A DNA stretch of 64,000 nucleotides from Candidatus Latescibacterota bacterium. Its GTDB lineage: Bacteria; Latescibacterota; UBA2968; UBA8231. Every line of letters starts with the position of its first letter. Positions within the stretch are counted from its first letter, which is position 1. The DNA is taken from NCBI GenBank assembly GCA_965223905.1, contig CBDCXV010000010.1:192001-256000 (forward strand), given 5' to 3'. Below the pieces are notes generated by a model that saw only the letters and a program-made list of their open reading frames with translations, was not told the origin of the DNA and did no database searches. This document shows positions 2,889-64,000 of the stretch, piece after piece. The position numbers and the translations under genes were made by a program.

Positions 2889-3734
2889 TCATGGCCGTGC
2901 CGGCGGAATACCGTCCAGAATCTCCAGCGCCTCGTTCGCAGAAACCTCCCCGCGCGCGGCCGTGCGCTCCAGGTAGGTCCGGGTTTTGCCGTTGAGAACG
3001 CCGTAGAATCCACGGACTTCCGCGTCAGGGTGGTCCCGCCAAAGCGAGGGCGGGATATAGGTATGGTCGCTGTGGTACTCCCGGTGCCGGTGGCCGTAGT
3101 AGATCCCTACGGTTTTTCGTTCGGCCTTTGTCGGACGTATGCTGACGGTATGCAAACAGGATATGTTGAACAGTACCGCCGTGCCCGCAGGGCCCTGCAG
3201 GTCGCGGATTCCGCCACGCGCCAGCTGAGCTTCCTTGTTCAGGATCTCCTGATCGATCGATTCGGGCGAAATGGCGAAGCTGTGAGTCGTATCGCTGACG
3301 TCGGTCAGGTAGACCTGCAGCCTCATGAAGCCGATGCGCAGCGGATGTTCCCGCCACATGAGCCGTGCCCCCCCGTCGCGATGCCAGCGGCGCCCTACGG
3401 GTCCATCCCACGACGTCATACCGGGTACCGGCTCACCCTCGTACGGCCCCATGTTGTTGATGCAGATTTGCCCGAAACAGACTTCGCCGCCCATCAACCC
3501 CCGGAGGGGCTCCATGACATTGGGGTGGCGGATGACTTCATCGAACTCGGGCGCCGTCAGCAGGGACTGGCAGTACTGGGTCTGCCAGATGCCGTTGTCG
3601 GTCCAGAAACGGCCGAAGTCCCGCCGTTCCCGTTCGAAAACATCCAAAAAGCGGGCTACCTCGTCGTCGCTCAGAAACTGTTCGAGCAGGAGGTAGCCGT
3701 TTTCCTTGAAGAAATCGAAATCTTCCTGTTTCAT
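2889..3734 (-). CDS. PhyH-family dioxygenase
   Basis: FFKENGYLLL, WHRD, CLHT motifs. Confidence 0.85.
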   Translation of the reverse strand: MKQEDFDFFKENGYLLLEQFLSDDEVARFLDVFERERRDFGRFWTDNGIWQTQYCQSLLTAPEFDEVIRHPNVMEPLRGLMGGEVCFGQICINNMGPYEGEPVPGMTSWDGPVGRRWHRDGGARLMWREHPLRIGFMRLQVYLTDVSDTTHSFAISPESIDQEILNKEAQLARGGIRDLQGPAGTAVLFNISCLHTVSIRPTKAERKTVGIYYGHRHREYHSDHTYIPPSLWRDHPDAEVRGFYGVLNGKTRTYLERTAARGEVSANEALEILDGIPPARP

Positions 3735-3931
3735 TGCGGCTTCCTTTCATTGCATTCCAGTGGCCTATGCTTCACAACCCCGGATCCACCCCGCATTTCT
3801 CCGACAGCTCCTTCATGTCCCCGGCCCACTCCATCCCATCGGAACGGTCGGAGCCAGTGTCTGCGCGCCCAAATTGGCGGGAATTCGTCCGCCGCTGCGC
3901 CCTCGTTCGTACGCTCTAACGCCGCACTATA

Positions 3932-4603
3932 TCAGTAGGAGCCCGGTCCCCAGACCATCAGGTGGCAGTCGGATGCGGTCGCGGCCTGCAGCCTGGACAG
4001 GCCGCTCCCATCCAGTTGCCGTCGGACTTCATCCAGGCGGTATGCGGCGCGCAGTGAATTGCAGTAATCCCGCTGCAGCACCTCCGGCTCGTCGCGGTAG
4101 GTCGCCGCGAGTTCTTGAAGCTGACCCTCGCTATCGGGGCGCATCAGGTCCATGACGAACACCCGGCCTTTGGGCCCCGCGTGAAGCCGGACCGATTCCC
4201 ACAGAATCGCCGGATCTTCGAGGTGGTGGAGAAGGCTGTTGGAGAACACGAGATCGTATGCCCCGGCAGCGAGGGCCTGTTCCTGCAGCCGCGCTTCGAC
4301 CAGCTCGATGCGGTCCCCGAGGCCGGCGCCGTCGACCGCCTCGCGCGCGAGCGCCAGCATGGCGCCCGAGCCGTCGAGGCCGTGCACCCTCCAGCCTGGA
4401 AAGGCGCGCGCGAAACGGATGCCGATGTCCGCGGGCCCGCAGCCGAGATCGAGCGCCGTTCCCCGCTCCGGCAGCCCGGGAAGCCGTTCCTGCAGGCGGC
4501 GGATGAAGTTGCCGTGCGGCTCCTCGAAATCGGCGCCGGCGTAGGCCCGGGCCTGTTCCGCGCCCGACATCAGCTCCGGCTCGGGAACCCGCTGAAGGGT
4601 CAC
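3932..4603 (-). CDS. Class I SAM-dependent methyltransferase
   Basis: LDLGCGPAD motif I, GLDGS, SNSLLHH. Confidence 0.85.
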   Translation of the reverse strand: MTLQRVPEPELMSGAEQARAYAGADFEEPHGNFIRRLQERLPGLPERGTALDLGCGPADIGIRFARAFPGWRVHGLDGSGAMLALAREAVDGAGLGDRIELVEARLQEQALAAGAYDLVFSNSLLHHLEDPAILWESVRLHAGPKGRVFVMDLMRPDSEGQLQELAATYRDEPEVLQRDYCNSLRAAYRLDEVRRQLDGSGLSRLQAATASDCHLMVWGPGSY

Positions 4604-61707: not shown

Positions 61708-62082
61708 ATGGCACTGACCATCATCCGCACCGTCCGCCCCAGCCCCGAATGGCAGGATACCCTCATCCGCCTGCGCCAGGGACAGCGGGTGGTGATCGAC
61801 ACCGAGGAGGTCTGGTCGCCGGACATGCGCAACCAGACCGTATGGTGCGGGGCCGACGGGGTGTACAACCTCCCCGCGGACGAGGGGTACCTGATGCCCG
61901 GGGCCAACGTCGGCATGCTGATCGCCCGCGTCGGCGACGGGCCGCCCTTCGCCGTCGGCAGCCGGCACGACTTCCTCTGCGACCGCGACGGCCTGCTCCA
62001 CCTGGCGATGAACGAGAACCCCGAACACAACAACCAGGCCGGCAAGCTCTCCTCCCAGATCATCCTGTTCGGGGAAGAGTGA
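61708..62082 (+). CDS. Small LecA/PA-IL-like fold protein
   Basis: W.DT, GADG, P.ANVG.LIARVG..PF.VG, G.L.LAMNE...N..G pattern. Confidence 0.5.
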   Translation: MALTIIRTVRPSPEWQDTLIRLRQGQRVVIDTEEVWSPDMRNQTVWCGADGVYNLPADEGYLMPGANVGMLIARVGDGPPFAVGSRHDFLCDRDGLLHLAMNENPEHNNQAGKLSSQIILFGEE

Positions 62083-63187
62083 CCGCGACCGAGCTGTCAG
62101 CCGGGGTCTGGAGGGTCGACCTCAACGGCGGCCGCCGCGTCGTCGCCAAGCGCCAACCGTTTGCCGGCCTCACCCGGGGCCGGGCCGACGACCTGCTCGC
62201 CGTCGAGCAGCGGGTTCTGACCCTGCTGAAGGAGCGGAATTGTCCGGTGCCGCAGGTTGTCGGCGCCGATCCGGCCGCGGGCTTCATCTTCTTCGAGCAC
62301 CTGGGAGACGAAACCCTGGACGATGCCGTCCGCAGCGCCGGCCCCGACCGCCTCCAGCGGTTGCGGGAGCGGCTCGTCAGCGGATTCCTGCGGCTCGAGC
62401 AGGCCTTCGCCGACTGCCGGCGGGAGCTGGAGCAACACGTCTCTCCCGCTGCCTCCCGCGACCGGCTCCCGGCCGCCCTCGACCAGGCCCGCGACGGCGC
62501 CCGGGACGGTCTGCAGGGGCTCCTGCGCCGGTGCGGGCGGGCCTCCGGGGCTGATCTCCTTGAGCTCGAGGAACGGCTCGACGAGCTCTGCTCCCGGCTC
62601 GCCGGGGAGGAGGCGAGCCTCGGCAGCACCGACTACAACGCCCGCAACGTCGTCGTCGAACCCGGCAGCGACGCCGTCAGCTTCATCGAGTTCGCAAAGA
62701 TCGGCTGGGACTGGCCGGAGCGCCGGCTTGTTCAGTACGCCACCGGCCTGGGGGCGGGCGCGGAAGGGGGCTTCGCCGGCCTCCTCGACCGCACCGCGGC
62801 CGGCCAGTACGCGAGCTCCGCCCCCGGAGACCGGGCTTGCAGGGGGTTCGCCCTCGACGGCCACCACCTGCTCTTCCACCTCAACGCCGCGGCCAGGCTC
62901 TGCGGCGCCCTGGATCGTCCCGGCCTGGAGCCGAACCGCGCGCTTCTGAAGTCTGGCGGCAGCCGCGGCTGCGCCTGCGCCAGCTCTGCGAGGCCATCTC
63001 CTTCCCTCTCGGCGACGACTCCCTGGCCACCGGCTTCAGAAGCCGGTTCGCCAACCTCCTGTCCCGGGAATGGACCGGACACGATGCGGGCGGCCAACGG
63101 GTCCGGGGAACCCGGAGTGAAGAGGAACCAGTGAACGGACCGCCTGTTGTCACCCTCCCAACCCCTGATACAGGAGCGCAACCATGA
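62079..63187 (+). CDS. Aminoglycoside phosphotransferase/kinase-like protein; probable frameshift near 62945
   Basis: VVAKR, PVPQV, FEHLG, TDYNARN, FIEF kinase-like motifs. Confidence 0.6.
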
Positions 63188-63462
63188 GCGAATCGGACAA
63201 CCTCGACTTCAAACCCCGGGCCCGGGGACTCGTGATCGGCAGCATACCCTGGCTCGCCCGCATAGCGGACAAGGCGCGCGCCTGGCACGGCGGGCGCATC
63301 GGCGACTACGTCTTCCCGTGACCTGCCGACCAGCGCTTTCTGGAGGAAGCGGAGCTGCAGTCGGAGGAGTTTTCGGAGATGGTGCTGGCGAGCGCCGACG
63401 ACGACGAGTTGATCGCCAGAATGAAGGAACACCTCGGCGGGCGGACCGTTAAGGGTCCCTGA
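63184..63462 (+). CDS. DUF5069-like protein with in-frame TGA (codon 46), candidate selenoprotein
   Basis: caggag RBS; PWLARIADKARA...GDYVFP[TGA]PADQRFL...SADDDELIA; hairpin at 63331-63357. Confidence 0.75.
63331..63357 (+). promoter_or_regulatory. Putative bacterial SECIS hairpin
   Basis: cagc-gctttc-tgga-ggaagc-gga-gctg; apical loop 19 nt after the TGA, with G in loop position 2. Confidence 0.55.
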
Positions 63463-63471
63463 GCGCTGGCC

Positions 63472-64000
63472 GTGCTGGAGGACCGGATAGCCGTCGTCAC
63501 CGGGGCCGGCCAGGGGATCGGGCTGGGCGTCGCCCGAGCGCTGGCCGCCCAGGGGGCCTGCGTAGTCATCGGCGAACTGGTCCCGGAGCGCGGTGAAAAG
63601 GCCGCGGCCGGCATTGTAGCGGAAGGGTACCGCGCCGGGGCGATACAGCTCGACGTCAGCCGGCCGGAGTCCTGTTCCGCCCTCGTCGACGCCGTGCTGG
63701 GGGAGCACGGCCGCATCGACATCCTCGTCAACTGCGCCGGCATCTTCACCGCCCACCGGTCGGAGGAGTTCCCCGAGGAGGACTGGCGGCGGCAGATCGA
63801 CGTCCTGCTGAACGGCGTCTTCTTCACCACCCAGGAGGTGGTCCGCCGGGCCATGATCCCGCAGCAGTCCGGCAGCGTCGTCACCGTCGCCTCGATCGGC
63901 GGCATGGGCGGGTGGCCGATGCGGGCGGCCTACAACGCCGCCAAGGCCGGGGTCATCGTGCTCAACGAGGTGCTGGCGTCCGAGTGGGCACGGCACGGCA
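63472..64000 (+). CDS. SDR oxidoreductase (runs off window)
   Basis: VTGAGQGIG, DILVNCAG, YNAAK. Confidence 0.85.
   Translation, partial: MLEDRIAVVTGAGQGIGLGVARALAAQGACVVIGELVPERGEKAAAGIVAEGYRAGAIQLDVSRPESCSALVDAVLGEHGRIDILVNCAGIFTAHRSEEFPEEDWRRQIDVLLNGVFFTTQEVVRRAMIPQQSGSVVTVASIGGMGGWPMRAAYNAAKAGVIVLNEVLASEWARHG

Follow-up and report, generated by a model that had tools for sequence, protein, structure and literature searches.

Does a TGA codon in the middle of a short bacterial gene end the protein, or is it read as selenocysteine (Sec)? The question is raised by a 64,000-nucleotide (nt) stretch of DNA (hereafter the window, C10:192001-256000) from the genome of a Candidatus Latescibacterota bacterium (7.92 Mb, 11 contigs, 64% G+C), in which a small gene of the DUF5069 family, here called gene C, carries an in-frame TGA at its 46th codon. 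Gene C closes a compact run of three genes, A-B-C, behind which come two SDR genes. We consider it highly probable that gene C encodes a genuine selenoprotein, predicted to be decoded by SelB with the help of a selenocysteine insertion sequence (SECIS) hairpin. The computed evidence lies in the structure of the gene, the Sec machinery of the genome, the alternation of Sec with cysteine (Cys) at one column, the conservation of the hairpin, and the linkage and co-occurrence of genes B and C. Selenocysteine is rarely used and usually marks a reactive residue of the protein that contains it.

The reading frame of gene C and the column of its TGA

Gene C lies on the forward strand (63184..63462), from an ATG preceded at 7 nt by a Shine-Dalgarno-like AGGAG (63172..63176, forward strand, by direct sequence reading) to a terminal TGA at 63460-63462. 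The internal TGA (63319..63321, forward strand) stands in the context GDYVFP-U-PADQRFLEE and is followed by 46 more codons before the stop, giving a predicted mini-DUF5069 selenoprotein of 92 residues with the motif Y-x-[FY]-P-U-x-x-D. An earlier sequence-only reading of this DNA had described the ribosome-binding site, the ATG, the in-frame TGA and the 46 further codons, and all of them can be read in the window. It had also remarked that the gene was absent from the list of open reading frames (ORFs), which is explained by translation table 11 splitting the gene at the TGA into two ORFs of 45 and 27 amino acids (aa). Translated with Cys at this codon, the product scores 54.6 bits (E = 1.6e-14) against Pfam DUF5069 (PF16798), whose gathering cut-off is 27, so that the proposed DUF5069-like identity is borne out; the match is partial (profile positions 4-78 of 133), gene C being a short form of the domain. 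Besides the Sec/Cys position 46, the protein contains no further Cys.

Assembled short-read contigs from two runs of different studies, X1 (62975-63869) and X3 (62766-63999), bridge gene C and list no difference at 63319-63321, in agreement with TGA rather than TGC or TGT at this codon; one of the two runs may come from the very sample that yielded the window.

Comparison with relatives shows what occupies the same column elsewhere. When 61 related genomes were queried with the gene C protein, 51 gave a strong orthologue (E <= 2.2e-18), most of them with one TGA inside the match. Fifty copies were parsed codon by codon (30 loci from this search and 20 further regions, fetched and translated), and at the column of the gene C TGA they carry TGA in 40 cases and TGC or TGT in ten, with the sequence 3' of the column conserved in all 50. 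A survey of 168 species genomes across the phylum (orthologue call at E <= 1e-12) found the gene in 119, all within four families of one class, and at that threshold no orthologue in the ten other families; 105 of the 119 have one TGA and 14 have none (13 are stop-free, and in G024 the only stop is a terminal TAA). The column is an invariant Cys in 32 of 32 database homologues, and Cys stands there also in the solved structure 3omd, as the sequence-only reading had expected of the family.

The alternation extends beyond Latescibacterota. A second, Poribacteria-type phylum of 121 genomes, entered via a Poribacteria-labelled record (L118) and searched at E <= 1e-10, has a gene C orthologue in 117 genomes, 112 of them with TGA, and all nine fetched copies place the TGA at the same column, in GEYIYP-U-PQDKMFLEEH. 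Homologues from Chloroflexota and Clostridia/Bacillota are Cys forms wherever parsed, within a set of 80 loci whose search patterns favoured Cys forms and the Latescibacterota N-terminus, and whose Sec/Cys state was parsed in 67 loci and left unparsed in 13.

These distributions bear directly on the simplest alternative, that the TGA is a plain stop and gene C a pseudogene, or a gene for a 45-residue peptide, with a non-coding remnant as its downstream frame. Such a stop would account for the 45-aa ORF of table 11 and for the truncated products of public gene callers (the database entries P0056 and P0057 stop after ...YVYP, exactly where the UGA follows), and the neighbouring gene B is itself frameshifted in the window assembly. 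However, the TGA is held at one column in 105 of 119 orthologues of one phylum and 112 of 117 of another, the 46 codons behind it are open and conserved as protein in every parsed copy, and a nonsense mutation is not expected to persist across genera at 45-70% protein identity, nor to alternate only with Cys. We therefore give a plain stop almost no credence. In public protein collections the Cys forms are named 'DUF5069 domain-containing protein' and the Sec forms are cut exactly at the UGA; across the two phyla examined, gene C is truncated there or uncalled in over 200 species genomes. With the codon read as Sec, this would be a systematic mis-annotation, and selenoproteome counts for Latescibacterota and Poribacteria-type bacteria would therefore be too low.

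Selenocysteine machinery and the hairpin behind the UGA

A selenoprotein requires its decoding apparatus, and the check for selA, selB, selC and selD suggested by the sequence-only reading found all four in the same genome: SelA (468 bits), SelB (its specific wing-3 domain, in a 645-aa frame), SelD (367 bits, with one in-frame TGA) and tRNA-SeC(tca). Of the 105 genomes of the phylum with the TGA form, 102 have the SelB marker. Two genera, g7 and g10, are without any SelB match, and there all three orthologue-bearing genomes (G008, G022 and G024) have the Cys form. As an observation in its own right, the SelD of this genome (C10:1272233-1273156; L012:1528) is itself a selenoprotein, with the sequence ...KTCG-U-AAKA...; in its SECIS, an apical stem of 6 bp carries a 4-nt loop, GGUC, whose first base lies 17 nt beyond the UGA.

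The codon could nevertheless be decoded in some other way, by reassignment to Trp or Gly, by near-cognate read-through or by insertion of Cys. Nothing computed indicates reassignment, and what speaks for this alternative is the ability of the Sec machinery to put Cys at UGA when selenium is scarce. Against it, TGA serves as the ordinary stop of genes A, B and C in the same operon, the aligned residue of homologues is always Cys and never Trp or Gly, the full Sec machinery is encoded in the genome, and it is the TGA forms alone that keep a SECIS-type hairpin; decoding as anything other than Sec is accordingly very improbable.

That hairpin appears in the minimum free energy (MFE) fold of 63316-63385 as a structure of three tiers (63326..63364, forward strand). 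Its apical stem-loop (63335..63350, forward strand), predicted by the MFE fold and by RNAalifold, has a 6-bp stem (63335-63340 with 63345-63350) closed by a UGGA loop at 63341-63344; below it follow a middle stem (63331-63334/63354-63357) and a lower stem (63326-63330/63360-63364). The loop begins 19 nt after the UGA, as had been noted from the sequence when the hairpin was first called SECIS-like, and in its spacing, stem and G-containing loop the structure fits the usual description of a bacterial SECIS, numeric limits included. The single-sequence fold does not rise above chance, with a z of -0.66 and an equally good fold in 45 of 200 shuffles, and the hairpin stands above chance because of the comparison between genomes. 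On an ungapped alignment of 40 Sec forms (36 distinct), RNAalifold retained all six apical pairs, with one of 240 cells unpaired, in one sequence; a specified 7-bp apical helix (columns 16-22 with 27-33), of which RNAalifold predicts the inner six pairs, is 94% paired. Compensatory changes occur at two pairs, 17:32 (AU in 15, GU in 14, GC in 7) and 18:31 (CG in 22, GC in 14), none of them broken. Covariation over the whole structure was 0.247, a value reached by none of 500 shuffles (0.144 +/- 0.013), and it fell to 0.085 or less once the partners were slid by 1-3 columns. The lower stem is less constant, being 59% paired in the fixed register of the window, with a register that shifts between lineages. 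All nine fetched Poribacteria-type copies have the same UUCC-UGGA-GGAA core with different flanking pairs (AUG/CAU).

Could the hairpin be a by-product of coding, or some other regulatory structure, with read-through directed by a different signal? The stem is built from the codons of a conserved F-L-E-E peptide, so its conservation could be partly at the protein level; the insignificance of the single fold would agree with this, as would an Rfam search of 63100-63600 that returned only a chance match to a long non-coding RNA (E = 5.1), Rfam not having been checked for a general bacterial SECIS model. The Cys forms provide a contrast. Among sequences pooled from the 50 parsed copies and the 80-locus set, 57 of the 58 distinct Sec forms keep all six apical pairs, compared with 1 of 24 distinct Cys forms; the 12-mer TTCCTGGAGGAA is exact in 53 of the 58, which show four distinct 12-mers between them, and the FLEE peptide is kept in 55. 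The 24 Cys forms, in contrast, drop both F-L-E-E and its codons, with 20 different 12-mers and 12 different tetrapeptides at the same site. The constraint thus appears to travel with the UGA and not with the protein, which argues against a protein-level explanation, with the qualification that the genomes are kin and not independent samples. In addition, the spacing, stem length and G-containing loop match those of the selD element of the same genome as well as the general SECIS description, and a hairpin unrelated to Sec insertion is, in our judgement, most unlikely.

Alongside the chance-level single fold, the unsteady lower stem and the F-L-E-E codons, several further observations weigh against the selenoprotein reading or against parts of it. 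No SelB match was found in three TGA-form drafts, G005 (81% complete), G032 (98%) and G133 (92%). Contigs from RNA libraries flank the UGA (X11 at 63120-63306 and 63372-63529, X10 at 63368-63548) and leave 63307-63367, where it lies, unbridged; such libraries may also contain DNA. A further protein of the genome consists of three full-length DUF5069 domains in tandem (C1:1152074-1153321; L009:544-2358; 58-89 bits each), all three without Cys at the Sec column, so that Sec/Cys characterises one subfamily and not DUF5069 at large. In the window, a 1-nt deletion near 62948-62949 shifts the frame of gene B, where the window reads CTGAAG and both same-genus genomes (L064 and L016) read CTGGAAG; the extra base is present in the X3 DNA contig and in the X10 RNA-library contig, and no X1 contig runs across the site. 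The deletion may reflect faulty assembly or be a genuine mutation that inactivates the gene. Within +/-1.5 kb of gene C, gene B is also missing in the 10 Poribacteria-type loci and in Latescibacterota family f2. Sec insertion at UGA-46, the chemical role of the residue, and a physical or enzymatic link to the gene B protein are what we infer from the computed results. Tests run on the machinery, the reads and the homologues did not contradict the Sec incorporation first proposed from the sequence, and they support it.

The protein, its operon and a possible role

If gene C is decoded as predicted, SelB carrying Sec-tRNA(Sec) would recognise the hairpin just after UGA-46, through the apical stem at 63335-63350, and Sec would be inserted in place of termination, giving a 92-residue, mostly helical DUF5069 protein. 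A structural model (Cys in place of Sec, 33-row alignment; predicted local distance difference test, pLDDT, 83.4) consists of an extended N-terminal segment and four helices, with residue 46 directly before helix 47-55. Sec-46, so placed and the sole Cys-type residue in the chain, is most likely the reactive centre, nucleophilic or redox, and would act with a partner and not by way of a disulfide within the chain. The role that the sequence-only reading had attached to gene C, redox or metal-binding, is a putative one.

Only one solved relative is available, 3omd from Leptospirillum rubarum (profile E = 3e-14), with which the model aligns at a VIA-align Z of 11.5 (root-mean-square deviation 2.1 over 88 residues) and a Foldseek template-modelling (TM) score of 0.72. 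Beyond 3omd, a fold search against the PDB gave Foldseek E >= 3.9 or VIA Z <= 3.6, with no functional lead. Like gene C, 3omd has its Cys-type residue at the Sec column (YNCPLDQ), whereas it is a Cys form of 145 residues, with a C-terminal part that is missing from the 92-residue mini form, and no function is given in the title of its entry. The presence of Sec at one invariant column would mark the likely active site of DUF5069, a family of unknown function that has a solved structure. Elsewhere in the family, proteins resembling the triple-DUF5069 paralogue, 430-600 residues long, occur in many relatives. A second Sec was considered for the tandem-DUF5069 protein of G010 (L145, C1:2154800-2157200, reverse strand) and rejected, its TGA aligning with a conserved Gly (EFL-U-IDVD vs ETL-G-IAEE), as would suit a nonsense mutation or an error in sequencing.

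The two genes upstream of gene C overlap their neighbours. Gene A (61708..62082, forward strand, an ORF of about 124 aa) ends in a stop that overlaps the proposed GTG start of gene B (GTGA), and the stop of gene B (62079..63187, forward strand, start at 62079, identified by hidden Markov model (HMM) and structural model), a TGA at 63185-63187, overlaps the ATG of gene C (ATGA). Gene A has no Pfam or NCBIfam match at E <= 0.1 and is highly conserved in Latescibacterota (alignment with five copies). A role for it as a universal third partner was dropped: its conservation is confined to Latescibacterota, and the gene upstream of B in Chloroflexota L134 is unrelated.

Gene B has an APH-like kinase fold and belongs to an undescribed family. 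Four B proteins gave no Pfam family at E <= 0.1, and thus no APH (PF01636) match, and against NCBIfam only faint Bud32/APH(3') matches (E 0.009-0.05). The gene B model (pLDDT 95) has a bilobal kinase fold, and its top 50 Foldseek matches (best E 1.2e-7; TM 0.40-0.58) are small-molecule kinases, among them APH, homoserine and macrolide kinases. Across an alignment of 25 sequences, K52, E71, D205 and N210 are invariant and D231 is nearly so; these would be the catalytic Lys, the Glu, the Asp...Asn pair and the metal-binding Asp of a kinase. Two candidates within gene B were discarded, namely a Sec in the copy of G057, where the TGA counted was the terminal stop, and a conserved Cys (G-C-P-V-P) as resolving partner, which is present in Latescibacterota f1 and absent from the Chloroflexota, Clostridia, f2 and f4 copies. 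At 63105, where conservation of gene B is weak towards its 3' end, X1 and X3 have one base fewer than the window, which is matched there by the same-genus L064.

An HMM built from seven B proteins placed gene B directly upstream of gene C, on the same strand, at 74 of 80 loci, those from Chloroflexota and Clostridia/Bacillota included; the loci missed were L093, L118, L119, L120, L122 and L133, the last having only 70 nt upstream. Where B is unlinked it is still present, in single copy, in five of five genomes tested. Across the phylum, 115 genomes have both genes, 46 neither, four C only and three B only, so that 161 of 168 are concordant; the seven that disagree are all draft assemblies, in 150-820 contigs, and both genes are missing in one- or two-contig assemblies of three families (G012, G042, G056 and G097). 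This linkage and co-occurrence offer a concrete way to test what the two genes do, and they point to the APH-like kinase B, translationally coupled upstream through the ATGA overlap, as the most likely partner or pathway of gene C, a single reactive selenol at the helix N-cap perhaps acting together with it. A complex prediction for the Cys-form pair of L066 (score 0.01, mark 0.32) is informative on binding neither way.

Genes B and C might accordingly be viewed as a two-gene module, conserved in Latescibacterota, Chloroflexota and Clostridia/Bacillota at least, and with the two genes unlinked in Poribacteria-type bacteria and in Latescibacterota families f2 and f4, in which the single selenol or thiol would be the reactive centre of a new selenium-dependent step tied to phosphorylation and the small protein would be a kinase substrate, a carrier or a redox regulator. 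We put this forward tentatively, as a proposal with somewhat less than even prospects; if true, a shared pathway would link a selenoprotein family and a kinase family, both of them new.

The genes 3' of gene C vary, with the two SDR genes in the genus of the window and, in several other genera, an FNR-like NAD(P)H-flavin reductase, a GT2, an ArgC-like dehydrogenase and TatD. The FNR-like reductase lies immediately 3' of gene C in L071, L073, L086, L066 and L089 (at ~3267-4160 in each) and is recognised by Pfam NAD_binding_1 and weak NCBIfam PaaE/NADH-oxidoreductase matches; such a neighbour hints at a redox context. Contig depth in X1 and X3 rises to ~830-1590 at 63681-63774, loose ends being numerous at 63708 and 63740, and this jump is the conserved SDR core common to many organisms in the samples and not a feature of the locus.

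Relation to known selenoproteins and kinase operons

The sequence-only reading did not know DUF5069 as an established selenoprotein family, and the literature agrees. PF16798 is absent from the whole of Table 1 of a May 2026 review (PMC13188914), which lists 119 selenoprotein families and subfamilies, each with a domain accession. DUF5069 or PF16798 is named in no paper of the literature searched, although subscription papers and supplements outside it may hold the family. Neither name was found in the accessible part of the BSepDB supplement (PMC13326102), and the nine new families of deep-Sep (PMC12013277), as far as that source is accessible, do not include DUF5069. Among 18,950 NCBIfam models, none matched the gene C protein at E <= 1, and gene C therefore lies outside the selenoprotein families that have a model in the searched copy of NCBIfam. 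DUF5069 would thus be an addition to the bacterial selenoprotein families.

Bacterial selenoprotein genes carry an intragenic SECIS that is read by SelB, the prototype being E. coli fdhF. Gene C resembles such genes in its in-frame UGA at a Cys column, in a hairpin that follows a few nt after the UGA, in a G-containing apical loop ~17-19 nt downstream, and in the presence of selA, selB, selC and selD in the genome; it differs from fdhF in its UGGA tetraloop, as set against the fdhF-type loop, and in belonging to a family outside the reviewed list. Similar in character are computationally predicted families of unknown function such as the hypothetical proteins GOS_B, DG and DF (PMC13188914), which like gene C are small, have one Sec and Cys homologues, lack a UxxC or CxxU motif, and were predicted by comparative genomics. 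Gene C has no sequence relation to them, as judged by the NCBIfam non-match, with the accessions of these families not each confirmed in the searched copy. A parallel for the gene pair is found in E. coli yihE/rdoA (srkA)-dsbA, where an APH-like kinase-fold gene lies upstream of, and is co-transcribed with, the gene of a small thiol-redox protein. The pair B-C shares with it, by analogy only, the placement of an APH-like kinase-fold gene directly upstream of a gene for a small protein, and the small proteins themselves differ, DsbA having a thioredoxin fold with a CxxC motif whereas DUF5069 is helical with a single Sec/Cys.

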